The position numbers were made by a program, and so were the translations under genes. From the NCBI GenBank assembly GCA_910577645.1, contig CAJTOL010000017.1, positions 696 to 64,695 on the forward strand: 64,000 bases of DNA. The letters run 5' to 3'. The DNA is from an uncultured Lachnospiraceae bacterium (GTDB lineage Bacteria; Bacillota; Clostridia; Lachnospirales; Lachnospiraceae). The notes beneath the pieces are model-generated. The model did no database searches. It was not told where the DNA came from and saw nothing but the letters and a program-made list of their open reading frames with translations. This document shows, in pieces, positions 29,256 to 53,600 of the stretch (position 1 is its first letter; every line of letters starts with the position of its first letter).

Positions 29256-29784
29256 GAAGATATCCTCTCAGTTTGTCTTTTAAAAGAAGATTGGCCCGAT
29301 AAAGCCGGGTTTCGACAGTGCGCTTTTGCAGGTTTAAAAAAGCAGCAATTTCTTCGTTGCTGAATTCATTAACATATCTTAATTCTAATACAGAGCGATA
29401 TATTTCATTTAATTCCCCTATCGCTTTTTCGAGATAAGAAAGATCTTCGCTACGGATCATGTTATCAACAATTTCGTCAGAAGGAGAAGACAAATTCAGA
29501 TGGGCTTCAAAAGATTCTTCTTGAATCTTGCTCTTATCTCGAAGATAGTTTATACAGTAATTCCGCGTAGCAGTAATAATATAATTTTGAGATTTTTTGT
29601 AGTTATTCAAATCAATTTTATCTAAATGATAGGCCAGTCGTATAAAAATATCCTGCGACAAGTCTTCTATAAGGGTTTCATCATTTGTGTAACGTTTGAG
29701 TGTAAAATAAATGGTTTTGCCATAAGTTTCATATAATTTGGTAAATTTATCGCATTCTTCGTGGGTATCAAAAACTAGTATCAT
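29245..29784 (-). CDS. ECF-type sigma-70 family RNA polymerase sigma factor
   Basis: Region 2-like (EDLSQDIFIRLAY) and region 4 HTH (FSNEEIAAFLNLQKRTVETRLYRA). Confidence 0.8.
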   Translation of the reverse strand: MILVFDTHEECDKFTKLYETYGKTIYFTLKRYTNDETLIEDLSQDIFIRLAYHLDKIDLNNYKKSQNYIITATRNYCINYLRDKSKIQEESFEAHLNLSSPSDEIVDNMIRSEDLSYLEKAIGELNEIYRSVLELRYVNEFSNEEIAAFLNLQKRTVETRLYRANLLLKDKLRGYLHGK

Positions 29785-29801
29785 ATGTTAGACTCCTAAT
29801 T

Positions 29802-30140
29802 TTATTCTTTTTGGCAGTTTAATTCGGCCGAAATAATATAATCAAAAATGTTTAGAAGCTTTTCCTGCTCTTTTAACGGTAATTCTGTTAATCTTCTTTC
29901 AAGATGTTTCAGTTGAGAATAGCTGTACATATTAATTTCGTCTCCAAGCAAACTGTCAGCAGGAATATTTAATGCATTGACGAGTTTAATAAGAGTGTCT
30001 AAGCTAGGAGATTTTTCACCACGTTCCATGTAAGAAATAAAAATAGTGCTACATTCGATCTTTTCGGCCAATCCTTCTTGACTATAGCCAGCCTGTTCCC
30101 TATATTTCTGCATACGTTTTCCAAATGCTTTTTTATCCAT
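29802..30140 (-). CDS. XRE-family HTH transcriptional regulator
   Basis: FGKRMQKYREQAGYSQEGLAEKIECSTIFISYMERGEKSPSLDTLIKLVNAL is a classic Cro/C1 HTH. Confidence 0.85.
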   Translation of the reverse strand: MDKKAFGKRMQKYREQAGYSQEGLAEKIECSTIFISYMERGEKSPSLDTLIKLVNALNIPADSLLGDEINMYSYSQLKHLERRLTELPLKEQEKLLNIFDYIISAELNCQKE

Positions 30141-30359
30141 GTTAAAACCTCATCTTAGTTTAAAGTATAATACCTTTAGTATTATTTAATAAAGTATACA
30201 GAAAATCGTAGGTTTATTACACAAACTATAAGTTTTATATTTAATACTATAAGTAGTGACATAATAAGTTTTGGGACAATTTTGTGACAATATAAGGACA
30301 CCTTGTAGAAAAATGAAAAATTTTAGTGTTAATTATATTGTAGAAATGGGGGAATTGAT

Positions 30360-30725
30360 ATGACAGAGATGCAGATAAAACATTTATTGAGTAAATATAT
30401 TTTTATACAGCAAGAAATAGAGATATTAAAGAACTATGAATCCTGCTATAAAGAACCAATAGCAAGTAAATATAAGAAAAAGGAATTTTACATAAATCTT
30501 TTGTCCAGTGCAATAAAGATTTTGGATGAAAAAGAGCGCTTTGTAATTGAGACACATTTAATTAATCAGAAAACTTGGTTGGAAACAACAGAATTGTATG
30601 AAGGAAAGTGCGGAATTTTAAATAGGCGTTCAGAGCGAACATTGAAACGCATACAGTCAAAAGCGTTAACAAAGATATGGGATTTCATTACCAAGTTACC
30701 GATAGAGATTGATGATATAGAATAA
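30360..30725 (+). CDS. Small sigma-70 region-4-like / ArpU-like regulator (Tn916 orf7-like)
   Basis: 121 aa. LDEKERFVIETHLINQKTW...SERTLKRIQSKAL resembles a sigma region 4 HTH. It is divergent from the XRE gene, as in conjugative-transposon regulatory modules. Confidence 0.5.
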   Translation: MTEMQIKHLLSKYIFIQQEIEILKNYESCYKEPIASKYKKKEFYINLLSSAIKILDEKERFVIETHLINQKTWLETTELYEGKCGILNRRSERTLKRIQSKALTKIWDFITKLPIEIDDIE

Positions 30726-30790
30726 AAGCCAGACACAGCTCTGCTTTTATGCCTTATGAGACTGTGCATAAAAGCAAAACCATTTATCTC

Positions 30791-31480
30791 CTATTCTTTT
30801 TGTTCTTCCAAATACCTGTTTTCATTATACAGCAGGTGAAAATACATAGCCTGCTGGGCTTCCACCGCCTGCCTGTCCCGAATGGCATTAAAAATTGCCC
30901 GGTGGGAAATTCGGGTCTGTTCATATTCCACAGACTTAACCTCACTGGCAAATACTGTTATTCCTTTTCCGATAACCGGAACCAGGTTGGACATAACGCT
31001 GTTGTGGCTGCATATTGCAATCTGCTGATGGAATTCAATATCTTTATCCGAATAATCCTGGCGCTTTTCAATCATCTCTTCTATCTCTAAAAGAATCTCT
31101 TCCAGCTTTTCTATGTCCCCGGCCTCAGCATTTTGGGCCGCTAAAGCCGCAATCGGCGGTTCCAGCATTACCCGCACCTGAATCAGATCCCGGTTCAGCT
31201 TCTTTCGATCCTCAACCATAGAAAATCCAAAAGGATCATCTGCTACTCCCTGTTTTTCAGAAATGAAAGTTCCCGCTCCCTGCCGTATGGTCACAATATT
31301 TCGGGATACCAGAAGCCGCAGCGCTTCCCGAACTGTATTTCGTCCCACCCCCAAACGCTCGGAAAGCTCTGCCTCTGTGGGAAGCTTATCTCCCGGGCCA
31401 TAGCTGCCCTGCCGTATCAGATCAATCAGCTCTTTGGCCGCCTGTTCTGCTAATGTTTTGTGTTCTCCTTGTTTTTCCAT
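30791..31480 (-). CDS. GntR-family regulator, FadR subfamily (FCD domain)
   Basis: N-terminal winged helix (KLPTEAELSERLGVGRNTVREALRLL) plus a helical FCD-type C-terminal domain. Confidence 0.85.
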   Translation of the reverse strand: MEKQGEHKTLAEQAAKELIDLIRQGSYGPGDKLPTEAELSERLGVGRNTVREALRLLVSRNIVTIRQGAGTFISEKQGVADDPFGFSMVEDRKKLNRDLIQVRVMLEPPIAALAAQNAEAGDIEKLEEILLEIEEMIEKRQDYSDKDIEFHQQIAICSHNSVMSNLVPVIGKGITVFASEVKSVEYEQTRISHRAIFNAIRDRQAVEAQQAMYFHLLYNENRYLEEQKE

Positions 31481-33860: not shown

Positions 33861-35276
33861 TTATTTGCAAACAGTTTCTTCTATAATATTATTAATCTGG
33901 CTTCTTAACTCTGCAATTTTACTGTACAAACCTTTTTGTTTCCCAATCTCTCTCTCGATCTCATCTACAATCTTCTGTTGCTCTTCCGGTAAAAGATCCG
34001 GGGCAGGAAATTCCTGCATAACGATAGGAAATATATTCTGATTCTGTAATCCTTTTTTATATAGTTCAATCAAATATTGAAAATATTTGCTTCTCAGATA
34101 ATAGTATCCGAACATGGGATTATATTTCTGGCTGTCAAAGCGAATTCTCATTGTAAAATCCGCAAATATCCCTTTAAAGTCCTCTTTTACAATAGCTGTC
34201 TTTCCTATTGCAACGCCTGAGCGGGCCATAACAATATCCCCTTTTTCCAGTGTCTTATCTTTTTTGGCCTGGTAAAAGGAATCGGAAACTAATTGAGTTT
34301 CATCCAGCTCTATTTCCAATGTTTTGATAGTGGCCATGGACACGTAATATGCCTCTCCCCTCTCGTCAAAATCTTCCGGTGAAATACTTGCGCCAAGGAC
34401 AATGGGCGCTGCCAGAAAGTGTTTAATTTTCTTATCCGTCGTCCCGGCAAGCTGCTTTTTTACAAATGCGCCGGCTGGCCGGTGGTATTTTGCACTGAAA
34501 CGCAAATCCAGGTTGTTGCCAAAGTCCTGCTGTTCCAGATGATAATTCTTTTCTTCTTTTAATTTTTCAAATTTCTTATAATCAAAAACAAATTTTTTCT
34601 GAAAAGCAGAATCTATAATCTCCTGCAAGCTTCGCAATTCTAACGATAATTTTTTAGCAGTTTTAAGCGTCTCGCTTATCTTTTTCTCGATGGCATCTTT
34701 ATTATCAATTAATTGGTCTATTATCGTTTTATTAAATCTTACCTCTTTTATATCTGTTTCGTTAATTGTCGGATACCCTTTTCCCTGCCTGGATACCGCT
34801 ATCAAATTCTCATAAAAAATGGTACGTAAACCATGGTAAAGAATCTCCGGTATTTTTTTAGGTTTGATTCTTATAAAAGCGGATGTAAAATATACATCTT
34901 CCATATCTTCATCAATAAGTACAAATTTCTTTAAATTAGGCCTCACTTTAGATATAAGAATATCGCCTTTTTCCGCTGCTATGATATCGCCTTTTTCTAT
35001 TTTCTTGTAATAATTTTCATTAATTAAACTACGTTCATTAAAGTTTAAAACAACCGGTGTTATATTTCCATTTTTATCTACATTTCCTATTTCACAGTAT
35101 TTAAAATCACAATATAGCTGTTCTTCTGAAATTATTTTCGTTTCAGGAAAGCAAAACAAATCGTAAAATATATAATATTCCTGCAGATGGTTCTGATAAT
35201 ATTTATGAAAATCGTAATCACTTCGGAAGCTCTTTTCATAGCTGAGTTTTTCAAAATCAACGTTATTTATTTTCAT
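33861..35276 (-). CDS. Restriction-modification specificity (S) subunit with two target-recognition domains
   Basis: It has two TRD-like halves separated by helical spacers and a C-terminal LPEEQQKIVDEIE motif. ATG 35276 lies 12 nt after the upstream stop. An alternative GTG at 35297 would overlap the upstream gene. Confidence 0.8.
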   Translation of the reverse strand: MKINNVDFEKLSYEKSFRSDYDFHKYYQNHLQEYYIFYDLFCFPETKIISEEQLYCDFKYCEIGNVDKNGNITPVVLNFNERSLINENYYKKIEKGDIIAAEKGDILISKVRPNLKKFVLIDEDMEDVYFTSAFIRIKPKKIPEILYHGLRTIFYENLIAVSRQGKGYPTINETDIKEVRFNKTIIDQLIDNKDAIEKKISETLKTAKKLSLELRSLQEIIDSAFQKKFVFDYKKFEKLKEEKNYHLEQQDFGNNLDLRFSAKYHRPAGAFVKKQLAGTTDKKIKHFLAAPIVLGASISPEDFDERGEAYYVSMATIKTLEIELDETQLVSDSFYQAKKDKTLEKGDIVMARSGVAIGKTAIVKEDFKGIFADFTMRIRFDSQKYNPMFGYYYLRSKYFQYLIELYKKGLQNQNIFPIVMQEFPAPDLLPEEQQKIVDEIEREIGKQKGLYSKIAELRSQINNIIEETVCK

Positions 35277-35287
35277 AATCAGCGCTT

Positions 35288-37975
35288 TCACTCCCACTCA
35301 ATATCACGCATATGATCCAGCACCGTCAAATACGTATTTTTATGGAGGGCAATGTAATTGCTCTGGTATTCCTGAAGCCGTCCACTTTTAAACTCTTCCA
35401 CAAGGGCCTCATCTGTCCGTTCCAGGTACATTTTCTTCAGAGCATCTCCATCATAGTACTTTAAGGCAAATGCTTTTATTTCTTCATATTCCGCGCAAAT
35501 CTTATCTTTTTCCGTTGTAAGCAGCTCTATTTTTTTATCGATCTGCTCCAGCTTCTCCGGCTTCTTTTCTTTTTTTTCCTTCTCTTTCTCAATTTGCTCT
35601 TCTAGCGTTATAATGCTGTCCTTGTAGTCCTTATGGATTTTTTCAACATTAAGCTTTTGCGGAGCGTATTCCAGTGTAAATAATTCATTAGGCAGTTCCT
35701 TTTCTCCCCGTTTTGTCCGCTTATATCCAATATTTTCCGCCTCTGCCATAAACACTTTATAGGTGGTTCTGGGGGCAACTTCCCCAAATACCCACCAGGT
35801 ATTTACATATCCAAAGCTCTCTTTGGTGTCTTTATCAGTGGTACACAAACTTTCTAATTCTCCCCGGTATTTTTCCATCAGCTCGTCTGCGGAAAGCTTG
35901 CTGTCATTGTCCGTTATATATCCCTTCAGCATCCGGCACAGGGTCGCTTTTTCATCATCCCAGGTCATCTCTTTAATTGACGGCAGCTTGTCTTTTTCTT
36001 TCAGACCGTCATGAACTGCCAGAAGATTTTCCACCCGGGTTTTTAGCTTGGAATACTCATTGGATGCAAGACTCCACAGATTATTCCATGCAGTAACCTC
36101 TGCCGCCGTCTTCTTCTGGGCAAACAAAATGCTGGTTTTGGTTGAAGTATATGGTTCAAAAGCTAATTGAGGCAGGGAAACTACTGCTTTGATCTTAAAA
36201 TATTTATAAAGGAACAAACGGATATACTTATTTTCCGTTGTATCAAAAACACTTTCCGGAAGAACCGCCGCCAATCGCCCATTTTCCCGCAAAAGCTGAT
36301 ACCATCGTTCAATAAAGAGATTTTCTGAGTTTTTCTTTTCTCCGAATATAAAGCTCTTTTTAATCGTCTTCTTTGTATCATTATCCAGGTTTACGCTAAA
36401 GGGCGGATTGGTCAAAATCAGATCAAAATTCCCGTTTACCATTTTTCCATAATACAGGGACGCCTCGTTGCCGTCATGCATAACGTTTGGGCCGGTTTCT
36501 TTTTGATATTGCTCGAAAGGAAGCAGGCCGTCTTTTACAAAGATATTGGTGGAACCGTCTCCGTGGAGAATCATATTTACCTTAGCCGCAGTGCCCAGAT
36601 TAAAATTGGATTCCACCCCGTAAATATAGGTCTGAGCCCATTTATTTTCCCGATGATCCGGATAAAACCAGTCGGACTCTACTTTATCTTTGACTGCTCT
36701 GGTGGTGCCCAATTCCTGGCGGAACCGGTACTTCATGTTTTCAGTTATGAATTTCATGTATTCAATTAAAAATGTACCGCTGCCTGCAGAAGGATCCACC
36801 ATATAAGGGATCTCCTTATCCGCCTTTATCCGTTTAATCGCCAGCCTGTCTGCCTGGATTGCCCACAGCATAAAACGTACAATATTGACATGAGTGAAAA
36901 ACTGCCCTTTACTCTGTTTAAATCCACCGCGGATAATGCCCTCAAAGAATTCTCCCAGAATATCTTTTCCGCTGAGACTATTTTTCCCGTCAACAAAAGA
37001 AAGCCCTTCCAGCTTTTGAACGGCATATTTTAATTTAGACAGAGAAAATTTTTTGGTATCAATCACATAGGATTTTGCCAGCTCCGTCTCATCCGCTATA
37101 TACATCTTTGCTCTTAATGCATCTTGATAAAGGCCGTTAATGCGCTCAAAAAGCTGGTCATTGGTTTCAAACGCTTCGTCTCCTTCTTTTTCAAAGGTAA
37201 GCGCCTGAAATTTATATTTTTCCCCGCTTTCTGTGGTATCTTCGTCCTGAATTTTTGCGAGAATCAGATTGGTTAAGGAGGAAAACACTTCGTTATCATC
37301 CGTTCCTCCGCCGCCCCACAAAACGTTATGTAAATCTGTCTGGAGCTGATTTAGCATTTCACCGGAAAAATTAGTTTCCAGATCCTTATCAGAATCCCTT
37401 ACATATGGTTTGTGCTGTGCCTTTCCATAGCAGGAAGGAAGATCATTGGTGTAATTTCGTGAGCTCTCCCAATCTGCAAATGTTGGATACAGATCCGTAT
37501 CTATAATGATACACTCATCTGAAACCCGATCTTCTGTCTGGGAAATTGTGTATAGAACCAGATATTTTACTTTGTGGTTCTCTGCATTTTCCATAAAGGA
37601 AACTTTGTATAATTGCTCCTCAATGGTTTTGTCTTTATCAATTACACGGTAATCCTCCGGGCTTTTTACCTCTATAAACAAAAAGGCATCGCCTTTTGCA
37701 TCCCGGACAATAATATCAATACGGCTTGTATTGGTATGGGGACGTCCTGCGGTGTATTCTCTTTCAATTTCTATCCGCTCCGCAGGATATCCCAATTCAT
37801 TGACAAGTCTTGTCAAAATAAAGGCCCGGGTCATTTCTTCGTCACCTGAGCAGTCATTTATGGTTCTTCTCTGAATAATGCCGTCATATGCTACCTTACT
37901 TTTATCCAGCTCCAATTTTGCTACTACTTTTACCACCTGGCTGTCAATATAGATTTTTATAAGCTCTCTGTTCAT
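35288..37975 (-). CDS. Fused PD-(D/E)xK nuclease (HSDR_N-like) and gamma-class N6-adenine DNA methyltransferase (BcgI-like type IIB/IIG R-M subunit)
   Basis: N-terminal SRIDIIV...FIEVK (D87, E102, K104; 37664..37717). SAM motif VDPSAGSGTF and catalytic NPPF (36398..36409). A coiled-coil C-terminal extension follows. No helicase-type HsdR is nearby. Confidence 0.75.
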   Translation of the reverse strand: MNRELIKIYIDSQVVKVVAKLELDKSKVAYDGIIQRRTINDCSGDEEMTRAFILTRLVNELGYPAERIEIEREYTAGRPHTNTSRIDIIVRDAKGDAFLFIEVKSPEDYRVIDKDKTIEEQLYKVSFMENAENHKVKYLVLYTISQTEDRVSDECIIIDTDLYPTFADWESSRNYTNDLPSCYGKAQHKPYVRDSDKDLETNFSGEMLNQLQTDLHNVLWGGGGTDDNEVFSSLTNLILAKIQDEDTTESGEKYKFQALTFEKEGDEAFETNDQLFERINGLYQDALRAKMYIADETELAKSYVIDTKKFSLSKLKYAVQKLEGLSFVDGKNSLSGKDILGEFFEGIIRGGFKQSKGQFFTHVNIVRFMLWAIQADRLAIKRIKADKEIPYMVDPSAGSGTFLIEYMKFITENMKYRFRQELGTTRAVKDKVESDWFYPDHRENKWAQTYIYGVESNFNLGTAAKVNMILHGDGSTNIFVKDGLLPFEQYQKETGPNVMHDGNEASLYYGKMVNGNFDLILTNPPFSVNLDNDTKKTIKKSFIFGEKKNSENLFIERWYQLLRENGRLAAVLPESVFDTTENKYIRLFLYKYFKIKAVVSLPQLAFEPYTSTKTSILFAQKKTAAEVTAWNNLWSLASNEYSKLKTRVENLLAVHDGLKEKDKLPSIKEMTWDDEKATLCRMLKGYITDNDSKLSADELMEKYRGELESLCTTDKDTKESFGYVNTWWVFGEVAPRTTYKVFMAEAENIGYKRTKRGEKELPNELFTLEYAPQKLNVEKIHKDYKDSIITLEEQIEKEKEKKEKKPEKLEQIDKKIELLTTEKDKICAEYEEIKAFALKYYDGDALKKMYLERTDEALVEEFKSGRLQEYQSNYIALHKNTYLTVLDHMRDIEWE

Positions 37976-38077: not shown

Positions 38078-40288
38078 TTAACACAGACAGGATCGGCTGC
38101 TGCCTGGCTCTCCTTCTATAAAGCAGCTTCCTTCTCCTTCAAACATCAGGCTGAGCCTGTGAAGAGCCCTGGTACATTCTACGTAGAGAAGGTTTTTATC
38201 ATCTGGACTATAATAATTTTCTGCATCCCCATCACACACCATAACCGCGTCAAACTCCAGTCCCTTTGCCAGGCAAACCGGCATAAGGAAGGTTCCCTTA
38301 ATGCTTTCTGTGTCCTGATCGGTCCTGAGCTGTACGGCTATTCTGGATTTTAAATCCTCGTATAACCTGGCCGCATTTTTTTGAGTTTTGCATATGAGAC
38401 ATATAGTCTCCAGTCCTTTTTCCCGGCAAATGGATACCTCCTGTACAATTTCCTGCAGCAGCTCCTCATGGGAGGCGGCAGAAACGATCTTGGGCTGGTC
38501 GCCGCTTCGGTTAAAGCTTTCCACATTCAGCTCTTGTTTTAAAAACTGCTGGCTGAATTTAAGGATTTCATTTGTACACCGGAAGCTTTTATTTAAAGTA
38601 ACCAGGGTTGACTTCTTTTTTTCTAAAATCTCCTGTATTTGCTCATATAATGACAGGGTTTCGCTCTTTCCCAGTGTTTGGCAGATATCTCCCAAAACAG
38701 TAAATTTCCCGTTTGGAAAAAGCATACGGAATACTACATATTGAAGAGGATAATAGTCCTGAGCTTCATCAATAACCACCTGGCGGATATTCCGGTATTC
38801 CCCTGTTCCATAAAGCTTTAAATACAAATAAGCCGCAGCAATGGCATCATCATAATATACACGGCCTGACTGAAGATTTTCCCTGGTGTATTCTGCAATA
38901 TTTTCAGCCATCTGCCGCGCTTTGTCATTTCTCAGCCAATTATTTTTCCAGTCTTCCAGAAAGCTTTCTTCCAGGAACAATTTTCCATACAAATCTACAA
39001 CGTCAATCCGGCAAAACTTTTGTATCTGCTCCTTTACCTGCCTGCGTCCTTCCCTATCTTCCCTCTTTTTAGCTGTTCCGAAAATGCGTTCCAAAACGTA
39101 GTCTTCCACCTGCTCAAGCCGCACTCCAAGGGGGACATCCGGCCTTCTCAATATCCACGCCTGCAGTTCTTCTCCTGTAATCACCTGCTGTCCATGATAG
39201 GAAATATCCCCAAATTTCATCCAAACCATAGGAATTTCCAACACAAAACGATCCAGAATTTCCTGAAAAACTTTTGAGGTTTTAAATTCCATACTGGCTT
39301 TTACCAGTTCTTTATAGGAGTTATTGGTAACTGCCTGCTCCAGAAATTCATTTTTAGGCTGAAGCTTCTTTCCCTGAAGCAATGTTTTTAAAAGATCATC
39401 AAATACAATCGAGTGAATATCTTCTTCCCCAAGCTCGGGAAGGACATCTGAAATATACTGTTCAAAGGTGTTGTTGGGAGAAATAATCAAGATATTGTCG
39501 GAAGAAAGTTTTGCCTGCTGCAGGCCCTGATACATCAAATATGCGGCCCGGTGAAGGGCAATGGAAGTTTTTCCGCTTCCTGCGATTCCCTGTACCATCA
39601 AAAGGTCGCTTCCCATATCCCGAATCACCGTATCCTGTTCCTTTTGGATAGTCTCTACCACTGCTTTCATTTTGGGGGAAGTGTTTTTTGACAGTAACTG
39701 CCGCAAAAATTCATCGCTGATATTTCTGTCTGTATCAAAATAGTATTGCAGCTTTTGATTTTTAATCTCATATTGCCGCTTTAATGTAACGGTTCCGTCT
39801 ATCCGTCCTCCTGCCGCATCATAACAGGCAGGCCCTGTCATAAAACGGTAAAAAACGCTGGCAATCGGGGAACGCCAGTCATAAACCAGAATTTCCCTGG
39901 AGGTCTTTTTACTTAGAGATGACCGGCCAATATAGATTTCTTCCGGCGACTCTTCCTCTTCAAATTGAAAATCGATTCTGGCAAAATAAGGGTGTTCTAT
40001 AATATTCTCCAGGCGGCGTATGTTTCGTATCTCTTCTTCATAGTCTGCAATACTCTCTGTAACAGGATCATGCAGCTGGTTCAGCTCCACCAATGCCTCA
40101 AAATCGTCTGAGCTGTAAAGATTGGTAAAGCCATGGGAAGAATCCTCAAATACTGCCTTTTTCGCTTCTGTAATTCCCGCCTTCTTTTCCTCTGCTGCTT
40201 TCCTTGCCTGCCGCAGCTGTTCGTTTGCAGCGGCAATGGTTTCTTCCAAACGGTTCTCTTCGTACATCTGTTCAGACTGATTATTCAA
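38078..40288 (-). CDS. helD: HelD-type UvrD-like helicase (RNA polymerase-associated helicase IV family)
   Basis: N-terminal coiled coil, then HPYFARIDF...IYIGR...YDWRSPIA, Walker A GIAGSGKTS, DEAQDY, and C-terminal 1B/2A motifs. The TTG start at 40288 sits behind GGAGG. Confidence 0.8.
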   Translation of the reverse strand: MNNQSEQMYEENRLEETIAAANEQLRQARKAAEEKKAGITEAKKAVFEDSSHGFTNLYSSDDFEALVELNQLHDPVTESIADYEEEIRNIRRLENIIEHPYFARIDFQFEEEESPEEIYIGRSSLSKKTSREILVYDWRSPIASVFYRFMTGPACYDAAGGRIDGTVTLKRQYEIKNQKLQYYFDTDRNISDEFLRQLLSKNTSPKMKAVVETIQKEQDTVIRDMGSDLLMVQGIAGSGKTSIALHRAAYLMYQGLQQAKLSSDNILIISPNNTFEQYISDVLPELGEEDIHSIVFDDLLKTLLQGKKLQPKNEFLEQAVTNNSYKELVKASMEFKTSKVFQEILDRFVLEIPMVWMKFGDISYHGQQVITGEELQAWILRRPDVPLGVRLEQVEDYVLERIFGTAKKREDREGRRQVKEQIQKFCRIDVVDLYGKLFLEESFLEDWKNNWLRNDKARQMAENIAEYTRENLQSGRVYYDDAIAAAYLYLKLYGTGEYRNIRQVVIDEAQDYYPLQYVVFRMLFPNGKFTVLGDICQTLGKSETLSLYEQIQEILEKKKSTLVTLNKSFRCTNEILKFSQQFLKQELNVESFNRSGDQPKIVSAASHEELLQEIVQEVSICREKGLETICLICKTQKNAARLYEDLKSRIAVQLRTDQDTESIKGTFLMPVCLAKGLEFDAVMVCDGDAENYYSPDDKNLLYVECTRALHRLSLMFEGEGSCFIEGEPGSSRSCLC

Positions 40289-40763: not shown

Positions 40764-40839
40764 ATTTTCTCCTTCCCGTTCTATCGGCGCGCCCGCCTGA
40801 CAGTACGTCAGAATATATTCCGGCTGTGAAGCTTTTGTT

Positions 40840-41745
40840 TCACAACCGTTCTTCCCCCTTTGCTGCTGCCTGAATACCTGCGATTGCACCGTCGGCAACT
40901 GCTGTAGCCACTTGTCTCACTTTTTTTACACGAATATCTCCCGCCGCAAATACCCCGGGGATTTTCGTCTGCATAGAATCATCAACTGGAATATATCCCC
41001 CATCTAATCTCAATTCTGTGTACATCTGCGTATTCGGAACAATCCCTGCGTATACGAATACCCCGCACTCTGAATCTTTTACGATCTGCTTTTTTCCTGT
41101 TTTGTTATCTGTAAATTCAAGCGCTTCTACTGCTTCGCTGCCATATATAGCAGTAAGGCTTGAATGTGGCATGATTTCAATATTTTCATGAGTAACTACT
41201 TTATCTCTGAATTCCTGTATACATGCAAGTTCCTCTTCCACACATACAATCATTACTTTTGCTGCTATGTCAGCCAGATAAAGTGCCTCCTTTACTGCTC
41301 CATCTGCTCCGCCAATGACATAAACATTCTTTCCTTTATAATCCATACCATCTTTAAGCGCGTTTAATCTGACTCCCTTCAGGCTTTCCCCCGGAATGTC
41401 CAGCATACGGCCAGAACCGCCATTTGCCAAAATTAACGTCTTTGATTCGTAACTTTCTTTGTTGGTCACTACTTTCTTTATTTCACCTGTAAGCTTTGTT
41501 TCTATCACAGTTTCATAACGAATCTCCACACCTGCCTTTAGCGCCTGCTCTTTCATTCGTTCCGCAAATGTATTGCCAGATTCTCCTTGCGCGACTGCTG
41601 TATAGTGGGTAACGGTAGATACTGTTCCTATTAAACCGCCTACCTGTCTTTTTTCCAGCACCAAAACTCTTTTTCCTCTGCTTTTTCCGTAAACAGCCGC
41701 ACTGATACCGGCCGGGCCTGCGCCAATAATAATTATATCGTACAT
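40840..41745 (-). CDS. Thioredoxin-reductase-like FAD oxidoreductase lacking the redox-active CxxC
   Basis: DIIIIGAGPAGISAA, VYVIGGADGAVKEA and GVFAAGD give a TrxB fold. NALK (41353..41364) replaces CATC, and CVEE replaces HRRD. Start is ATG 41745 behind AGGAGG. Confidence 0.8.
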   Translation of the reverse strand: MYDIIIIGAGPAGISAAVYGKSRGKRVLVLEKRQVGGLIGTVSTVTHYTAVAQGESGNTFAERMKEQALKAGVEIRYETVIETKLTGEIKKVVTNKESYESKTLILANGGSGRMLDIPGESLKGVRLNALKDGMDYKGKNVYVIGGADGAVKEALYLADIAAKVMIVCVEEELACIQEFRDKVVTHENIEIMPHSSLTAIYGSEAVEALEFTDNKTGKKQIVKDSECGVFVYAGIVPNTQMYTELRLDGGYIPVDDSMQTKIPGVFAAGDIRVKKVRQVATAVADGAIAGIQAAAKGEERL

Positions 41746-41940
41746 TTCTGTAGCCTCCTTATTTCCTGTCAATTCAATCATTATTCCCAACCGCCCTTAA
41801 ATTCATTCGTTTCTAAATTTTTCGTTGATAACCGGTAACTTTTCAGGTTTCTGTCATATTGGGGAATTTTGATTATACCTATTTTGTAGCAGGCGGAATC
41901 TGCAGGCAAGTCTAGCATATTATATGGGCGCAGACTTCCA
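40859..41940. repeat. Left copy of a diverged direct repeat (trxB-like gene + upstream intergenic region + relic of the araC-like 5' end)
   Basis: It aligns by eye with 52884..53600, with roughly 80-90% identity in aligned blocks. The relic of the AraC N-terminal coding sequence is at 41861..41940 and corresponds to 53521..53600. Confidence 0.8.
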
Positions 41941-42002
41941 AATTAGACAGACTTGCGGATTTCCTTACTGATATGATCCTTTAAATAAGTAAATGTGTTT
42001 TC

Positions 42003-42391
42003 TTACTTTATTTTTTCTTTTATTATTAAAACAGTTTCTTCAATAGATAAATCCGTGGTATCTATAACATTGAGTTCGTAATTATCCTGTGCGGTTTTCA
42101 CCCAAGGGTCTAAAAACCAGGGGCCGATGATCCCGTCTACCATTACATCATATCCTCCCCGCACGTAGCGTTTCGCTGCTTCTAAAAAGGCTTCGATAAC
42201 CATTAGATTTTGTTCCTGGGATTCCGGTAAATACGGCGGAATTGCGCCCTTGAAGAGGTAATGGTAGAAGTCGTCTGTGTGCATATGTACAGACTTGGTT
42301 AAACTGGATTCTCTCGCAAGTATGGATGCGGTTGTGATTTTCCGATTCCAGGTGTTCCGATAATGATAACGATTCTTCCTTGTTTTATTCC
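42003..42391 (-). pseudogene. Frameshifted small P-loop kinase/AAA-type ATPase (CPT/zeta-like size class)
   Basis: Walker A IVIIIGTPGIGKS (42335..42358) is in a different frame from the 93-aa ORF 42003..42284 (HTDDFYHYL...DGIIGPWF). No ATG start is evident. Confidence 0.6.
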
Positions 42392-42395
42392 TTTT

Positions 42396-44354
42396 CTATT
42401 TTTTATAGTCTTCTGCATAAGCAGACTCAAATGAGCGCTTCGCTTTTTCTAAATCATTAATTAGCAATTTCATTCCATATCTTTTTATCAAATCCTCAAT
42501 ATTATTACTATCTCCTAAGCTCTCAAGGATTTTTTCTACTGTTTCAATATCGGATTCTATGCCTTCTCTAATACCCTCTCTCCGTAAAGCATACAGCAAA
42601 AAATTTCTAAAATAATATAAATTCTCTGCATCTGAGTTTTGAATTATTTGTGTCCATTTACCTGCTTCTATACCTAAAAACACTCCTCTTTTCCAATATT
42701 TTTTTGTTTCATTTGTTAATACATAGTTATATAATAATCTTCCCCACTCTTCTCTTTTCTCAAGAATATTCTCAATAGTTTCATTCCTAATTGGGCATTC
42801 TATACTCTCTAATTCGCGATTGATACTTATTACTAATTGCTTGTATTCATCAACGAATTCTATATCTTCAATCATATACCATTCCTCTGAGAGAAGTTCG
42901 TTTTTCTGCTTCAAATCTTTTTTAATGCACTCAACTGCTTGAGAAAGTGATTGCTCTGAAACTCCAAGATGTTGCAATTGCATCAGTACTAATAATATCT
43001 TTCTATACGAATTTTCATGATACCCTCCCCCTTCCAATTTCCGTATAATTTCGCCAATTATTTTTTCTGCCTGTACTTGTGTCATTATATACCATTTATT
43101 ATATAATTGGTTTAGAGGATCATCAGCTGGCAATTTCTCAAATAATTCTTCTTTAATGTACTGGCCGATTTCTTTCTCTAATACATCCAGTTCAAGGTTA
43201 CTGTTTTCAACATATTCTTTAATTGATTGAAGTCTAAGCTTTTTACCATATACTGGGTTTTCAGTTTCATTTACATTTGCTTTAAACTCAACACATATAT
43301 CAAAGCAATTTTGAACTATAAATTTCAGTGTCTCATTTTTATAGTTCTTGTCTATGTTAATTTGATCCAGCTTAGGATACAGATATTCTATCTTAGACAA
43401 AAAAAATTGAAATGTTCTAAAATTTAGATGATCATATTCCTCCATTTTATTTATAAAGTTCCGGACATTTCCATTTAAGTGTTCCTGCAACTGTTTGTCC
43501 CCTTTAAAGTCACTAATCAAACGATGCATAATTGCTGAACTGTCAGGATTGTAGTGAATTATCACACCAATTAGCTTTTCACGAATCCTTTTGTACTGTT
43601 CATCCCATTCTGCATCGAAAAAAATTTTACTTCTCCTTCGTTCTAATTCATCAAGAGAAAACTCTTTTATCGGTTTATTTATCTTTTCTGCAATTCCAAA
43701 AGGCTCCTTATCTGGAATTAAAATATTAGCTTGAGCAGCCACCAAATTCTGCCATTCTCTATATTCCCGTTTTTTCAACTGCCCTATTTCTTTTTCATTT
43801 GCAACTAAAATAACTTTCGCACTCTCATGTTCCACTAAACTGTTAATATATCCCAAAATATCGTTAATTGGACAATCACATCGTTCCAGGTCGTCAAAAA
43901 TAAAAATGTGTTTATTAAGTGAGACAAATTCTGCAACCATTTCAAAATCTTTCCCCGCAAAGCCAACCTTTTGCATAACAGTTCCAACCAACTTTTTGGT
44001 CATAGTTAGAACAACTCTTTGACTTTTTTCTCTTTTTTCTGCCATTTCACCATACACTGTTTTTGTTGGAATATTCGTCTGTACCTGCTCTTTCAATTCA
44101 AAAATTTTTTTATCTAAAATACTCCAGTATACATTCTTCTCTACATCCTCTACCGACTCACATCCGTATAATGAAATATATTTAATATCTCTCCTCCTAT
44201 TTTTTTCCTCGTATTCTTTAATAGCTGATGTTAAATCATGTAAAACAAAGTGCGTTTTTCCGCATCCCCAGTTTCCATCAATCATTATCGCGTATCTATA
44301 ATTTTCGTCTTCCAAATACCGTTTCACTTCATTAATAATTTGCTCACTCTGCAT
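42396..44354 (-). CDS. KAP-family P-loop NTPase
   Basis: Walker A is AIMIDGNWGCGKTHF (44253..44276). Walker B is HIFIFDDLERC (DD at 43890..43895). A long helical C-terminal region follows. AT-rich. Confidence 0.8.
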   Translation of the reverse strand: MQSEQIINEVKRYLEDENYRYAIMIDGNWGCGKTHFVLHDLTSAIKEYEEKNRRRDIKYISLYGCESVEDVEKNVYWSILDKKIFELKEQVQTNIPTKTVYGEMAEKREKSQRVVLTMTKKLVGTVMQKVGFAGKDFEMVAEFVSLNKHIFIFDDLERCDCPINDILGYINSLVEHESAKVILVANEKEIGQLKKREYREWQNLVAAQANILIPDKEPFGIAEKINKPIKEFSLDELERRRSKIFFDAEWDEQYKRIREKLIGVIIHYNPDSSAIMHRLISDFKGDKQLQEHLNGNVRNFINKMEEYDHLNFRTFQFFLSKIEYLYPKLDQINIDKNYKNETLKFIVQNCFDICVEFKANVNETENPVYGKKLRLQSIKEYVENSNLELDVLEKEIGQYIKEELFEKLPADDPLNQLYNKWYIMTQVQAEKIIGEIIRKLEGGGYHENSYRKILLVLMQLQHLGVSEQSLSQAVECIKKDLKQKNELLSEEWYMIEDIEFVDEYKQLVISINRELESIECPIRNETIENILEKREEWGRLLYNYVLTNETKKYWKRGVFLGIEAGKWTQIIQNSDAENLYYFRNFLLYALRREGIREGIESDIETVEKILESLGDSNNIEDLIKRYGMKLLINDLEKAKRSFESAYAEDYKK

Positions 44355-44468
44355 ATCTACCTCAATTCCTCTCTAATCAAAGCAAACTTTCTTTGTTGCT
44401 GATAAAATCACTTTTTCTTTTAAAATTCATGCCTTTTCTTACCTCATTGCAAAAATCCTCTTTTGGTT

Positions 44469-47400
44469 TCAATATCCATTTTCCGCCTCCACACGTTCCT
44501 CCTTTGAGTAAATTTCATATTCCTTAGCCAGACCATAATAGATTTCCGCAGTTTTGGGATATTTCATACTTAAAAAATCTGCATTATCTCGATATTTCTC
44601 TGCAATTCGCCGTTCCGATTTTCCCGCATCCGGAGTGAAACCCCCTCTTTTATTGAAAATAGCAGTTCTATATTCCCTAATGAAACTATCGTCGGCATCT
44701 CTTTCAATCACGCACCTAACCGCTTCACATGGCTCATAGCCGTCCTTTCCCTTTGGGGAAAATGCAAATAATCTCCCCATCAAAGAACTATAAAGATTAG
44801 ATTGTCTCGACTCTGCAAGCAATATTTTAAATTTATCTGTCCATGCCTGCAATTTCTCAATATTTACCTCATCATTTTCCTCAGCAGGACAAAACTTGGC
44901 CTTGCGGTAAAATGCGTAAAGATTGCTTATATAGGACTTCTCTTTTTCTGATTTATTTTGCCGTTCTTCTCCCTGATGCCTGAAGATTATGGATACTATT
45001 TGCGAAAATATTTCCGGAGATCTTTTTACCTCTCTCTGAAAACATCTCATTCTTGTCCAATCCAGTACATTCATAAAAATCATTTCCAAAGCTGCAATTG
45101 CCATGCATTTTTCTTGATCCTCAATAAAGGCTTCCTGAACAGGCTGCAGCAAATTTTCAAGATAAAAATCTACCGTTTGAATATCCTGAGAACGCCTTAT
45201 TTTTTCAATGCCGTTTAGATAACCATAAATCTGTTCTGCAGAAAAGGGCTTATTTTGATTAATCGTATACAAAAGCTTCAGATATTCCTGCATAGTGCCA
45301 TATTTCCGACATTCTGATATTGCCCATTCTTCATGATGGGCAGGATGTCTTCCCGAGTTCTCCCAGAACCTATATTTAAATCTTTCTTCCGCCTCTGAAA
45401 TCAGCGGTAATTCAGATGTTCTAAATGCCTCTATCTCATATAGCTGCACAATAAAGTCCTCTTTGCACTGATAGAAATTTGCAAGCCGGAAACACTTTTC
45501 AAAAATATCCTTGTTAAAATCCTCTGCTGCCCACAAATAGTCTAAAGCCATTCTTCCTGAAATCTGTTTTTTTAAAAGCAGCTCATAGATATTAATATCA
45601 AATCTTCCTTCAGACCAATATCTCATTAATGCTCTTCCCAGAGAGTTTCTTTCATATTCTGCACAAATTTTTGCAAGTATATCTAAGCTGCAGCGATTCT
45701 CCCGAAACTCTTTTATTTTTTCCCGGACGGTCCTCTCCTCTTCCTTCTCATTAATTTCGCGCTTTCCTTCCTGATCGTATGGAACCGGATTTAGCAATGG
45801 AAAGTCCCTGCCTGAATTAAATAAGTACAGATATTCATATTCTGGAGTTGTTATTGTAATTTCTGACAGCAATTGCTCATAGGACGCTATTTCATCCTCC
45901 CTCATGGCCCATTCCGCTGAAGCAAAATATCGATGGCGGTAAATCAAACCGCGAATAGAATTTTTTATTTGTATTACTTCTGTATCCGACATCTGGGCAC
46001 ATTCATATAGTAATTTATCAAATATTTCCTCCCGCAATTGTTGGCTTACATTGGAAGAAAATTTCAACATTTTTTCCCAGCGCTCTACAGAAAAGTCCAT
46101 ATGTTTCAGCAGAATTTGCAAATAAGCAGCTGTTAATGCATAGATCTCCTTCCATGCTGCAGGTTTCGCATCATTGTGATCCCGGTATTTGGGAGTTTCC
46201 AGCGTTCCTACAATCGTAGAAAAATTCCCCGGCAAGGCATTGTATATAAATTCCCACCCATTCCGATCTAGTTCAAGAGCAAGCTCCGCCGCCTGAATTT
46301 TGTCTTTTAAAGAATCCAAAGCAGAAAAATTATAGCCAGGGAAGTACACCTTTGCAAGAATATCCTTAGGAGAGTTAGACTTATACCCAAAAGAACGGTC
46401 ATCTAGCTGCAACAGCCACTTTAATGCCCTTGATGCATATTCTCTCTGAGTTAAAAATTGTTCGATCCCCCACAAAATATTGATATATTCATTTCTTTCA
46501 AATAAACCATCCCCCGATTGAAATTCAAATAAATCCAGCAGCCCGGTATTCTTGTTTAGCTCGGACTCCAAGCGTCTTAGGACGGATTTGGGGGATACCT
46601 CGCATAGATTCGTAAAGAATGCAGAGATGTATTTCCATTGGACAACGCTCTGCACATAACCCAAAATTCTGTCAACCAAGGAATCTAATTCGCTTTGACA
46701 CTCTTCATCACTGCGGTAGAAGCCTTTCATAATTAAAGTTCGAATCATCCCGGTTCTTATTGTTCCTGACCAGAATAATTTTTCTCCTTTAAATTGCGCT
46801 AACAGTTTCTCCTGTGCAGAATAAGTAAACAAAGCTTCGGATTCATTTAAAACCTCAATAAACAGTTCTGTAAATTGTTTCCATAAAGGTTCTTCTGTAG
46901 AAATTGTCATACAATCCCATGTATTTTCAACACAGGCAAGGCAATACATTACTTCCTGATTTTTACGTACTTTATGGATAAATGGATCCTCGCCGGCTGT
47001 AAAAGGTAATAAGATTTCAATGAACTTCTCATATTTCAGGCCACTGAGAGTTTCTATAATGGCTTTATCCCCTTCCGCTTCTGTCCATTGCCCCAGAAGA
47101 AGGCAGGTTTTTTTTACCTGTTCCGGGATTTCGGTTAACCACAAAGGAGTTTTAAGATATGCGCCATTAAATATTTTTTTCTTCATAGGTACATATAGGC
47201 CATGAGTCTCCGCCACAAGTCTGCCAGCTTCGTTTATATCCATTCCCGCGCTGGACAAAGCATGTACTATTGTGGCATGAGTTCTCGGTCTGAAAGTTAA
47301 CGCCTTATGGGAAAAAACCGGCATCTCTTCAGAATATATAAAAATATTTGTATTTCCATCTATAGCTGTTATTTCATCTTTATAGAACCTGGGAATATAT

Positions 47401-48185
47401 ATGTGGCCAACCGCTGATATTTTTCGGAGCCTCTCCCAATCCTCATAACTCTCAACAACAAAAACTGCACGGTTATCCTTTATTTCCCATAGTTCATTCA
47501 ATATGCAATATAAGATTTCTTCCTGGCATTTTCCTTTTACATAGATACATTTATCATTTTTATGTACTTCAAATGATCTTTTGAATTCATCGTCATCAAT
47601 GCAAAAGAAGGAAATCCCAATTTTAGGATTTATCGTCATCCCCTTCAACCGGATGTCCATTTCATCAGCAGAATAAATTTCGATTCTCTGTTCCCGGTAT
47701 TTTGCCAGTTCCGATGTAACCACATCAATTTTCTTAGAAATGGTCTCCAATAAGGCGCTTTGCTCTTCTCTCCAATCCTGTTGAAAATAATGATCATACT
47801 TTTCCGGCGCCACTTCCCGAAGCTGCTCCAAAATAGTATACAGCATACCGTTTGCATAAGACTCAGCAACGCTATGGGGAATCTCATATTGGTCCATCAA
47901 CTCCATTAACTTATCCAGCAAATGAGCTTTTATGTCATATCCATCTTCGTTTTTCAAAGCTTTTGCAAGGTCAAGCATATTTTCTCTAGACAGAACTTCC
48001 GCTATATCGTCAAAAATCTGTTCTGCATATTTTTCATGCTCAATAAAAAATTTACCGGTATCAACAAATACCTTTTTCCAGTCCCGGGTACTTTTTAGTT
48101 TTTCTACTATATTGTTTCCGGCAGATACCAACATACCCGCGCCTTCTCCGGCAGCTAACTCTAATAGTATTTTTTTCTCAATCAT
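44469..48185 (-). CDS. Very large (1238 aa) hypothetical protein with no recognisable domain
   Basis: An uninterrupted ORF in AT-rich DNA. Start is ATG 48185 behind GGAGGGG, whereas the ORF-track start at 48233 is a TTG. I recognised no catalytic motifs. Confidence 0.7.
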   Translation of the reverse strand: MIEKKILLELAAGEGAGMLVSAGNNIVEKLKSTRDWKKVFVDTGKFFIEHEKYAEQIFDDIAEVLSRENMLDLAKALKNEDGYDIKAHLLDKLMELMDQYEIPHSVAESYANGMLYTILEQLREVAPEKYDHYFQQDWREEQSALLETISKKIDVVTSELAKYREQRIEIYSADEMDIRLKGMTINPKIGISFFCIDDDEFKRSFEVHKNDKCIYVKGKCQEEILYCILNELWEIKDNRAVFVVESYEDWERLRKISAVGHIYIPRFYKDEITAIDGNTNIFIYSEEMPVFSHKALTFRPRTHATIVHALSSAGMDINEAGRLVAETHGLYVPMKKKIFNGAYLKTPLWLTEIPEQVKKTCLLLGQWTEAEGDKAIIETLSGLKYEKFIEILLPFTAGEDPFIHKVRKNQEVMYCLACVENTWDCMTISTEEPLWKQFTELFIEVLNESEALFTYSAQEKLLAQFKGEKLFWSGTIRTGMIRTLIMKGFYRSDEECQSELDSLVDRILGYVQSVVQWKYISAFFTNLCEVSPKSVLRRLESELNKNTGLLDLFEFQSGDGLFERNEYINILWGIEQFLTQREYASRALKWLLQLDDRSFGYKSNSPKDILAKVYFPGYNFSALDSLKDKIQAAELALELDRNGWEFIYNALPGNFSTIVGTLETPKYRDHNDAKPAAWKEIYALTAAYLQILLKHMDFSVERWEKMLKFSSNVSQQLREEIFDKLLYECAQMSDTEVIQIKNSIRGLIYRHRYFASAEWAMREDEIASYEQLLSEITITTPEYEYLYLFNSGRDFPLLNPVPYDQEGKREINEKEEERTVREKIKEFRENRCSLDILAKICAEYERNSLGRALMRYWSEGRFDINIYELLLKKQISGRMALDYLWAAEDFNKDIFEKCFRLANFYQCKEDFIVQLYEIEAFRTSELPLISEAEERFKYRFWENSGRHPAHHEEWAISECRKYGTMQEYLKLLYTINQNKPFSAEQIYGYLNGIEKIRRSQDIQTVDFYLENLLQPVQEAFIEDQEKCMAIAALEMIFMNVLDWTRMRCFQREVKRSPEIFSQIVSIIFRHQGEERQNKSEKEKSYISNLYAFYRKAKFCPAEENDEVNIEKLQAWTDKFKILLAESRQSNLYSSLMGRLFAFSPKGKDGYEPCEAVRCVIERDADDSFIREYRTAIFNKRGGFTPDAGKSERRIAEKYRDNADFLSMKYPKTAEIYYGLAKEYEIYSKEERVEAENGY

Positions 48186-48400
48186 TTTTCTCACCCCTCC
48201 ATACAGTATAAACGAATTTTTTAATTCAGGCAATGTTTTTAGAACATTCGTTCTTTTCCGATTTCTTTGTAATACTTAATATTCCTTTGATACATCAATT
48301 TCTCCACTTATCATTTTTCTTTTAAATATATCCTCTCATAGCCCTAAACAGCCGCGCCCATTTATTCACTGAGACTATTTGCAATTTTCATAATCCACCA

Positions 48401-52772: not shown

Positions 52773-52875
52773 TTCCCCCGTTTTAAACCATTATACTTTT
52801 TAACCCTTTTCCTGAAGGGATATTCGTATTGCCATCTGCCCTGCTTTTAGTGGATACGGGTACTGAGACAGCATA

Positions 52876-53361
52876 TCAGCACATTGCTGCTGCCTGAATT
52901 CCTGCGATTGCGCCATCGGCAACTGCTGTCGCCACCTGTCTCACTTTTTTTACGCAGATATCCCCCGCCGCAAATACTCCCGGGATCTCTGTCTGCATAG
53001 AATCGTCAGTCGGAATATAGCCCCCATCTAGCCTTAATTCTGTGTACATCTGCGTATTTGGGACAATCCCCACATATACAAATATCCCACACTCTGAATC
53101 TTTTACAATCTGCTTCTTCCCTGTTTTGTTATCTGTAAATTCAAGCTCTTCCACCGCTTCGCCGCCATATACTGCCGTAAGACTTGAATGTGGCATAATT
53201 TCAATATTATCGTGGGTCATTACTTTATCTTTGAATTCCTGTATACATGCAAGTTCATCTTCCACACATACAATGATTACCTTTGCTGCGATTTCAGCCA
53301 GATAAAGGGCTTCCTTTACTGCTCCATCCGCTCCGCCGATTACATAAACAGTCTTTCCTTT
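52876..53361 (-). pseudogene. 5'-truncated paralogue of the trxB-like gene (covers approximately residues 137-297)
   Basis: It translates to KGKTVYVIGGADGAVKEALYLAEIAAKVIIVCVEDELACIQEF...GIQAAAMC, collinear with 40840..41337. An in-frame stop lies directly upstream and there is no start codon or N-terminal FAD fold. Confidence 0.8.
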
Positions 53362-53600
53362 TTAAATGATTGGCTCTAAATTTATCGTTGATAAACTGTA
53401 AATTTTCAGATATGATATTCAATATGAATTTTCACTGTAAATTTCTTGCGAAGGGGTCGTTGCAAATTTATTATGAAGCGAAAATCAAAGGTATACTTAA
53501 AGCTATTTTTATCATATTTAGGGATTTTGGTTATACCTATTTTAGTGGCAGGGGGAATTTATGGCCGAGTCTGGCAGATTATGCGGGCGCAGACTTCCAG
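52884..53600. repeat. Right copy of the diverged direct repeat (truncated trxB-like + intergenic region + intact araC-like 5' end)
   Basis: See the left copy at 40859..41940. Relative to it, this copy lacks the equivalent of about 41338..41810 and retains about 110 bp (53408..53520) that are deleted in the left copy. Confidence 0.8.
53388..53416 (+). promoter_or_regulatory. Putative sigma-A promoter of the araC-like sensor-regulator gene
   Basis: TTGATA (53388..53393), a 17-nt spacer, then TATGAT (53411..53416). Confidence 0.5.

Follow-up and report, generated by a model that had tools for sequence, protein, structure and literature searches.

A KAP NTPase gene and a giant NLR-like gene of an unannotated family: probably two independent defence-type genes side by side in an AT-rich island of a Lachnospiraceae chromosome

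We investigated two neighbouring genes in a stretch of 64,000 nucleotides (nt; here called the window) from an uncultured Lachnospiraceae bacterium (contig CAJTOL010000017.1 of assembly GCA_910577645.1, positions 696 to 64,695). One encodes a KAP-family NTPase and the other a protein of 1238 amino acids (aa), hereafter the giant. The first-pass annotation, made from the letters of the sequence, had taken the two for a candidate two-gene conflict or defence module, in which the NTPase was the switch and the giant an orphan effector or scaffold. The features on which the question turns are the following.

42396..44354, minus strand: KAP gene, 652 aa, an open reading frame (ORF) with an ATG start; at least 768 homologues of similar length
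44253..44276, minus strand: Walker A motif GNWGCGKT of the KAP protein, aa 27-34 with K33 (from the translation)
43890..43895, minus strand: Walker B DD of the KAP protein, aa 154-155 (IFIFDD, aa 150-155)
44355..44468, minus strand: intergenic gap of 114 nt, the left edge of a block that is absent from locus L019 (see below); homology to both L019 and L020 stops at the stop codon of the giant
44469..48185, minus strand: the giant, a 1238-aa ORF for an NLR/STAND-like protein with a degenerate P-loop, apparently a single-gene cassette

ORF calls confirmed that the two genes run in the same direction on the minus strand and lie 114 nt apart. The AT-rich character ascribed to this DNA was borne out as well, with a GC content of 0.32-0.39 across 42-49 kb compared with 0.43-0.48 in most flanking intervals. 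The longest ORF for the giant is 44469..48233 with a TTG start; the ATG at 48185 gives a protein of 1238 aa, which is the length of its closest homologues (P0001-P0003).

Whether the two genes co-occur in other genomes had been set beforehand as one of the checks that could refute the two-gene proposal. From the side of the giant, we scanned one genome per species and obtained 66 loci (labelled L below), 53 of which carried a full-length homologue and at least 1.3 kb of downstream sequence, and compared the window KAP protein by BLASTP with every ORF of these 53 loci. None of the 53 species-level loci had a KAP gene at a distance of up to 7 kb from the giant. From the KAP side, the loci of five relatives with 64, 57, 56, 43 and 36% identity were inspected; none of the five had a giant nearby (the 64% relative being on a short contig), L086 being among these solitary KAP loci. 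Seen from either side, the genes do not co-occur, and their adjacency was recovered only in near-identical assemblies (L085).

Comparison with related strains showed how the arrangement in the window differs. L019 comes from a metagenome-assembled genome of Enterocloster bolteae in which the gene order is as in the window on both sides, at ~87% nucleotide identity. The L019 giant is 96% identical in nucleotides (window 48238..44466) as against ~87% in the syntenic flanks, which suggests that the giant cassette was recently exchanged between related strains. No KAP gene accompanies it: where the window has 44466..40774 (3.7 kb), L019 has 170 bp, and HelD follows right after the giant. The extra 3.7-kb block of the window consists of the KAP gene, a decayed small kinase gene and a duplicate trxR-like gene; its features beyond the KAP gene, and the other trxR-like copy of the window, are these.

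42003..42395, minus strand: small P-loop kinase-like pseudogene, frameshifted (from three-frame translation), in the KAP-bearing block
40840..41790, minus strand: full-length trxR-like flavoprotein gene (Pyr_redox_2, 2.7e-36), at the right-hand end of the block that L019 lacks at this site
~52868..53365: partial second copy of the trxR-like gene

The decayed P-loop kinase that had been read directly downstream of the KAP gene is indeed there, with a Walker A motif, GTPGIGKS, in the frame that opens right after the KAP stop codon, followed by a frameshift and then the ORF 42003..42284; it matched no family among the Pfam, PADLOC, NCBIfam and PHROG profiles. The diverged direct repeats that were said to bracket the island were also recovered (40860-41341 versus 52884-53365, 87.6% over 482 bp; 41848-41940 versus 53506-53599, 79.8%), and both pairs are the two copies of the trxR-like gene segment. 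The window copy at 40840..41790 matches L019 1649-2588, a single full copy that lies upstream of the island there, so that duplication and KAP-bearing insertion go together. In L020, whose giant is 89% identical, homology is restricted to 48255..44469, exactly the ends of the giant. From the L019 and L020 comparisons it follows that the giant behaves as a single-gene cassette and that the KAP gene was a later, separate arrival. The KAP gene thus appears to have been inserted recently and separately within the 3.7-kb block and not to form a pair with the giant.

These comparisons bear directly on the proposal that KAP NTPase and giant are one two-gene system of switch and effector or scaffold, perhaps newly assembled in this lineage. 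The two genes are co-oriented and close, the gap 44355..44468 yielded no call of a terminator-like or a strong promoter-like site, the arrangement is repeated in the near-identical assemblies, and a replacement partner is conceivable in a clade that, as described below, lacks the usual kinase partner of the giant. Yet none of the 53 giant loci and none of the five KAP-relative loci (36-64% identity) has both genes, and the 96% and 89% identical giants stand without a KAP gene under purifying selection. The KAP protein, moreover, corresponds to a single-gene candidate in PADLOC, related single-gene KAPs act alone (PMC13552941), and the company it keeps in the 3.7-kb block, a pseudogene and a duplicated housekeeping segment, resembles an insertion scar. 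We consider a joint system highly improbable. The view that both genes are of conflict or defence type and lie in a variable AT-rich island was, in contrast, supported, and the likely explanation is that two independent defence-type genes have come to stand side by side in such an island of an Enterocloster-like (Lachnospiraceae) chromosome.

The KAP protein matched KAP_NTPase (PF07693) over aa 5-198 (E 1.7e-13, 51 bits against a cut-off of 20), and the Walker A (GxxxxGK[ST]) and Walker B (hhhhDD) motifs that had been read by eye are both present and intact. Transmembrane helices in or near the NTPase domain are typical of many KAP members, although not universal. In the window protein no 19-aa stretch of membrane-helix grade was found over the whole length (maximum Kyte-Doolittle value 0.97), and we therefore regard it as a soluble KAP. 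Three models of the PADLOC class PDC-S49 matched the protein (1.2e-45, 1.5e-42 and 1.7e-31), the best of them aligning KAP aa 5-420 with profile positions 8-343 of 624 and leaving the C-terminal third unmatched, as did phrog_4740 (1.5e-46). The earlier statement that the locus resembles no named system therefore held for the giant, which is unmatched in PADLOC 2.0, Pfam and NCBIfam, but not for the KAP gene, a PDC-S49 candidate. PDC-S49 is itself a candidate class only, with Tmn and PifA named as further related KAP systems; our literature searches, whose coverage was incomplete and which are not proof of absence, found no description of it.

Single-gene KAP NTPases from Enterococcus faecalis and from Lachnospira and Faecalibacterium contigs (the latter two from metagenomes) block phages, and in the E. 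faecalis protein both Walker B and the C-terminal region are needed for protection (PLoS Biol 2026, PMC13552941). With the PDC-S49 or single-gene class the window KAP shares intact Walker A and B motifs, a long C-terminal region and a solitary position in mobile elements, whereas EF_KAP and Tmn carry transmembrane helices and the window protein has none; its fit to the tested proteins (PMC13552941) is one of architecture, not of sequence comparison with them. The KAP gene is probably a self-contained single-gene system of PDC-S49 type, belonging to the class described as 'KAP NTPase fused to an unknown C-terminal region'. Having arrived together with the decayed small kinase gene and the duplicated trxR-like segment, it would use its intact Walker A/B site to drive or gate the ~450-aa C-terminal region in a nucleoside triphosphate (NTP)-dependent manner.

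Among the loci of the five KAP relatives no common neighbour was found, save a PDDEXK_2 gene in two closely related elements. The 56% and 57% relatives each lie right behind such a gene in a serine-recombinase element, the 43% relative is within a conjugative element, the 36% relative adjoins a Phd/ParE pair and the 64% relative is the one on the short contig. At L009, L010, L087 and L088, which hold KAP relatives of 56-57% identity, the PDDEXK_2 nuclease-family gene lies ~125 nt upstream, and a large serine recombinase is part of the element in L009, L010 and L087, those with enough upstream sequence. PDDEXK_2 and KAP may form a two-gene variant of the KAP system in these elements.

The first-pass annotation had recognised by eye no Walker, HExxH, PD-ExK, HNH, PLD, TIR, SIR2 or helicase motif in the giant, and profile searches agreed. 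No match at E <=0.01 was obtained in Pfam, PADLOC or NCBIfam (including the NACHT, NB-ARC, AAA_16, nSTAND and Avs models), nor does the protein contain GxxxxGK[ST], and phmmer and profile searches against Protein Data Bank sequences returned no STAND protein, only a spurious match to uL18 (E 0.018). Its description as an orphan did not survive. At least 149 homologues were found, nearly all of 1235-1264 aa and mostly from gut Firmicutes. A profile of aa 150-600 (451 positions, covering the nucleotide-binding oligomerisation domain (NOD) region), searched against 1.84 billion representative proteins, retrieved 2311 clusters at 50% identity with E <=1e-3, of which 1442 had E <=1e-10, almost all of them of 1200-1350 aa. 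Distant relatives with 22-25% identity are carried by 22 plasmids, 11 of them conjugative, from Rhizobium, Shewanella, Cupriavidus, Arthrobacter and others. Judged by homology, the giant appears to be a member not of an orphan lineage but of a very large NLR/STAND-like family that has no Pfam, NCBIfam or PADLOC model, and whose recurrent partner, where there is one, is a Ser/Thr kinase rather than a KAP NTPase.

One phage-derived profile, phrog_18693, matches the giant in two stretches, the best at aa 1029-1234. We considered a phage origin on account of this partial match and rejected it, there being no matches in 50,697 phage genomes and none in BFVD.

An AlphaFold2 model of aa 39-1238 (pLDDT 88.4, pTM 0.75) has a helical N-terminus, then one alpha/beta domain with a helical bundle and a winged-helix-like hairpin (aa ~166-420), and then ~800 aa of helices. 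A separate model of aa 150-480 reached a pLDDT of 87. On this basis the gene can be divided as follows.

47691..48185, minus strand: N-terminal all-helical domain of ~165 aa in the model, at the position of a swappable effector or adaptor module
46926..47690, minus strand: NOD-like module of alpha/beta nucleotide-binding domain (NBD), helical domain (HD) and winged-helix domain (WHD), aa ~166-420 (domain model m7bce77ef10bd)
47517..47534, minus strand: Walker A position, G218-K219-C220-Q221-E222-E223 in the alignments, not GK[ST]
44472..46925, minus strand: all-helical C-terminal region of ~800 aa in the model, repeat- or solenoid-like, the presumed sensor

Searched with Foldseek as a whole, the model found human SAMD9 first (E ~6e-5), with Avs4 and Avs5 also high and importin and CRM1 scoring too. 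The model of aa 150-480 found the Avs5 filament 9nc9 (1.6e-5), the archaeal AAA+ protein SSO1545, ORC/Cdc6, SAMD9, Apaf-1 (TMq 0.41), RFC, MalT and NLRP14, all with a probability of ~1. We conclude from the models that aa ~166-420 are predicted to be the NBD-HD-WHD module of STAND/AAA+ proteins.

The nucleotide-binding loop of this module is lost. The model would place the Walker A site at the beta1-alpha1 junction, where the family reads V-Y-V-[KR]-G-[KR]-[CS]-x-E-E. GxxxxGK[ST] occurs nowhere in any of the 102 full-length representatives, and no canonical Walker B follows the corresponding strand in the alignments. E223 is conserved in 100%, R301 in 97% and E222 in 89% of the same 102 proteins, and the lysine and threonine of the P-loop thus appear to be replaced across the family by a conserved Glu-Glu.

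Conservation is uneven along the protein. Across the family it is lowest over the N-terminal 160 aa (0.14-0.29), and the C-terminal region has a variable stretch at aa ~840-1040 and a highly conserved one at aa ~1100-1238. Several distant members carry an enzyme-like domain at the N-terminus, namely a trypsin-like protease (P0259, P0299 and P0316), a PIN nuclease (P0264) or a lipase-like alpha/beta-hydrolase of DUF676/LCAT type (P0372 and P0385), and one Rhizobium plasmid protein has a weak HTH_3 match there. Avs/NLR-like defence proteins are characterised by effectors exchanged at the N-terminus of a constant core and sensor (PMC13581612).

The giant family resembles Avs proteins (Avs1-5, Avs7-21) in its swappable N-terminus, NBD-HD-WHD core and long helical C-terminal sensor, and likewise in being a single large gene of patchy distribution with frequent defence-system neighbours; the Avs5 filament 9nc9 is its closest solved structure. 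It differs from them in the absence of Walker A from 102 of 102 representatives, in having neither a canonical Walker B nor a match to a STAND profile, and in that the subfamily of the window giant has a small helical N-terminus and, as the enzyme, a kinase encoded by a separate, translationally coupled gene. With SAMD9/SAMD9L and Avs9, to which the top whole-protein Foldseek matches belong (9zjw and related), it shares a STAND-type core, TPR-like repeats, size and antiviral context. AlbA_2, SIR2-like and OB domains define Avs9 and SAMD9 (PMC12680541), and we rejected membership of the giant in that group because neither AlbA_2 nor SIR2 was matched and its model contains one alpha/beta domain but lacks a beta-barrel. 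The whole-model TM-score is only ~0.14. AlbA_2 proteins are encoded by separate neighbouring genes in some giant loci, not in the window. Degenerate ATPase motifs have a precedent in variants of KpAvs8 (PD-lambda-4 family), which presumably do not hydrolyse ATP (PMC13581612); only some KpAvs8 homologues are degenerate, whereas the giant family has lost the motif in every member examined, and the likeness is one of description rather than of sequence comparison.

The only recurrent neighbour of the giant is a Ser/Thr protein kinase gene (440-480 aa) directly downstream, usually overlapping the stop codon of the giant by 14-120 nt. Across the 53 loci it was intact in 22, broken in 10 and missing from 21, so that 32 of 53 have the gene. 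The kinase retains the glycine-rich loop GxGxxG, HRDIKPxN and DFG, and matched the PADLOC PD-T4-6, Stk2 and mad6 models (1e-12 to 1e-23) over the generic kinase domain only. Stk2, PD-T4-6 and mad6 resemble this partner, absent from the window, at the kinase domain, but each occurs as a single-gene system or within a BREX-like operon, with no ~1240-aa pseudo-STAND protein beside it. MADS is an eight-gene operon, mad1-8. Membership in MADS or a BREX-like system was rejected because only generic domains matched (mad6 in the partner kinase, mad3 in a neighbouring ATPase of L023 and MAD2 in a methyltransferase of the window, the last with 158 bits against a cut-off of 720), while the giant itself had no match to the mad models. 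Our literature searches found no description of the giant-kinase pair or of the giant's family, with incomplete coverage that does not amount to proof of absence.

In a neighbour-joining tree, kinase-bearing members are scattered across the family and the gene has been lost several times; the clade of the window (window, L019, L020 and L015) is entirely without it; two further kinase-less clades retain full-length giants. A tblastn search of the kinase against the whole window revealed no remnant, and the decayed gene behind the KAP gene was rejected as one, since it derives from a small P-loop kinase gene that bears no relation to the Ser/Thr kinase. The window giant could accordingly be seen as a decaying, non-functional remnant of a giant-kinase system that has lost its effector, a notion to which the missing kinase of the whole clade and the broken kinase genes of ten other loci lend some colour. 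It is contradicted by the ORF, which is intact at 1238 aa throughout the four-member clade even where identity falls to 63%, by a dN/dS of 0.14-0.18 (about 0.15) within the clade, indicative of purifying selection, and by the full-length genes of the two other kinase-less clades; we think it very unlikely. Rather, the intact clade giants and their dN/dS imply that the giant needs neither the kinase nor the KAP gene to work.

CARD-CARD pairing served as the model for the idea of a homotypic adaptor, in which the N-terminal helical domain of the giant would resemble the C-terminal region of the kinase. It was dropped at an hhalign probability of 0.1%.

Other genes were noted beside the giant in particular loci. 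The giant-kinase pair starts ~20-40 nt after an hsdS-cluster gene in L016/L022, L024, L025 and L041, and in L016/L017 that gene closes a complete type I restriction-modification (R-M) operon, the pair standing as if embedded in it or co-transcribed with it. One related gene cluster lies right upstream of the giant in L031, L032, L035 and L082, and its L031 copy, the only one scanned, matches the PADLOC candidate PDC-S22 (E 1.5e-132). Proteins of ~430-560 aa with AlbA_2 (Schlafen-like), HATPase_c_4 and helix-turn-helix domains recur as well, downstream of the kinase in L001, L023 and L025 and directly upstream of the giant in L037, L048, L050 and L053. AlbA_2 is the effector domain of SAMD9, the best whole-protein structural match of the giant, and of Avs9; the AlbA_2 protein may be a third component or only an island co-resident. 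In Sharpea azabuensis (L006/L058, 6346..7977), a 541-aa DUF6119 protein with no PADLOC match is encoded 23 nt upstream of the giant-kinase pair in a transposase-rich region.

How such a protein might act can be sketched from its build. The giant would be a single-polypeptide NLR-like sensor made of an N-terminal output module, a P-loop-less core and an ~800-aa helical sensor. Its C-terminal solenoid would bind an invader-derived protein, and binding would free the NOD-like core to oligomerise without NTP hydrolysis, for which the degenerate Avs8 variants offer a precedent. The clustered N-terminal domains might then act directly or, in most lineages, switch on the coupled Ser/Thr kinase, which would phosphorylate host or phage targets as the Stk2 and PD-T4-6 kinases do. 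In the window clade, because it has lost the kinase and keeps the sensor under purifying selection, the output would come from the N-terminal helical domain or from a trans-acting factor. It is possible, and we propose it tentatively, that the giant is the first representative of a very large, as yet unnamed class of NLR-like immune sensors with a dead NTPase, activated without nucleotide exchange or hydrolysis and acting through swappable N-termini or a coupled kinase. Such a class would comprise at least 1442 clusters at 50% identity (E <=1e-10), extending over gut Firmicutes and, through distant relatives, to plasmids of proteobacteria and actinobacteria.

STAND-like proteins of the MalT, AfsR and PknK type suggest a different role, that of a non-immune regulatory scaffold that controls the kinase or transcription, in which case patchiness would reflect accessory physiology. 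In its favour, MalT is among the fold matches, the kinase partner is of the eukaryote-like Ser/Thr type, annotations describe distant plasmid homologues as helix-turn-helix regulators (one with the weak HTH_3 match), the C-terminal end of the giant is highly conserved, and several loci lie among metabolic genes, as in L001, where the giant is inserted in a cob operon. The trypsin, PIN and lipase-like N-termini are, however, typical of cell-killing effectors rather than regulators, and the partner kinase is closest to defence-kinase models. The cob insertion suits a mobile cassette better than a cob-related function, and the giant, low in GC and with homology that ends abruptly, does behave as a single-gene cassette. 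Its neighbours, too, are frequently R-M, Abi, PDC, integrase or relaxase genes, with AbiLi, integrase or relaxase genes downstream of the giant in single loci. We therefore regard a regulatory scaffold as unlikely, if less so than a decaying remnant or a joint system with the KAP gene.

Several points weigh against two independent defence-type genes. Because no terminator was called in the 114-nt gap, the KAP gene and the giant may be co-transcribed in the window strain, and may interact. The putative defence role of the giant, which has no PADLOC match, is argued from fold, modularity and neighbourhood. As to fold, the Foldseek TM-scores were modest, 0.3-0.42 with the model of aa 150-480 and ~0.14 with the full one, so that the NOD assignment is a fold-class call and not a close match, and the helical C-terminal region, which in the whole-model search matched importin, CRM1 and the TPR parts of SAMD9 and Avs4, is matched by generic solenoids such as the first two. 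Conservation of the protein peaks over the C-terminal 140 aa, which is unusual for an arms-race sensor. As to neighbourhood, the counts among the 150 nearest neighbours at full-length-giant loci (type I methyltransferases at most 9, specificity subunits 6, AlbA_2/HATPase_c_4 proteins 7, KilA-N proteins 4) are raw, made without a background comparison, and supportive only.

The two-gene system proposed at the outset does not appear to exist as such, and a false lead is thereby removed. The KAP gene is a further member of a known candidate class, and the P-loop-less family of the giant is the part of interest: an abundant gut-bacterial family of ~1240 aa with an NLR/Avs build, a nucleotide-binding loop lost in every member examined and, usually, a coupled kinase. 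If the giant is a defence sensor, it would offer a test of whether nucleotide is dispensable for switching on STAND-type immune receptors and would add a kinase-output branch to bacterial NLR-like immunity. For annotation, thousands of proteins now labelled 'hypothetical' in Lachnospiraceae and allied gut bacteria receive a family name and an architecture.

The genes that follow in the window beyond the 3.7-kb block, and those of a second low-GC stretch, are listed below.

38078..40288, minus strand: HelD (NCBIfam HelD_BACSU, 557 bits against a cut-off of 419)
35288..37975, minus strand: type IIG/BcgI-like methyltransferase-endonuclease of 895 aa (HSDR_N_2, N6_Mtase and Eco57I; MAD2-like at 158 bits, below the cut-off)
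29245..29784: ECF-type sigma factor, in the low-GC stretch 27000..31000
28569..29255: DUF4367 protein, in the same stretch
27413..28339: 308-aa ORF with no Pfam match, in the same stretch

HelD is an RNA polymerase recycling motor; PADLOC GajB-type helicase models match it as well, and it could therefore be mistaken for a defence helicase. The BcgI-like R-M system reported near the two genes corresponds to the type IIG/BcgI-like protein at 35288..37975. A 478-aa ORF with no Pfam match overlaps its gene (stretch 33861..37975, minus strand) and may be its specificity subunit. The stretch 33861..37975 as a whole is kept in L019, with a long ORF after HelD at the corresponding position. The second low-GC stretch, 27000..31000, has a GC content of 0.31-0.33.

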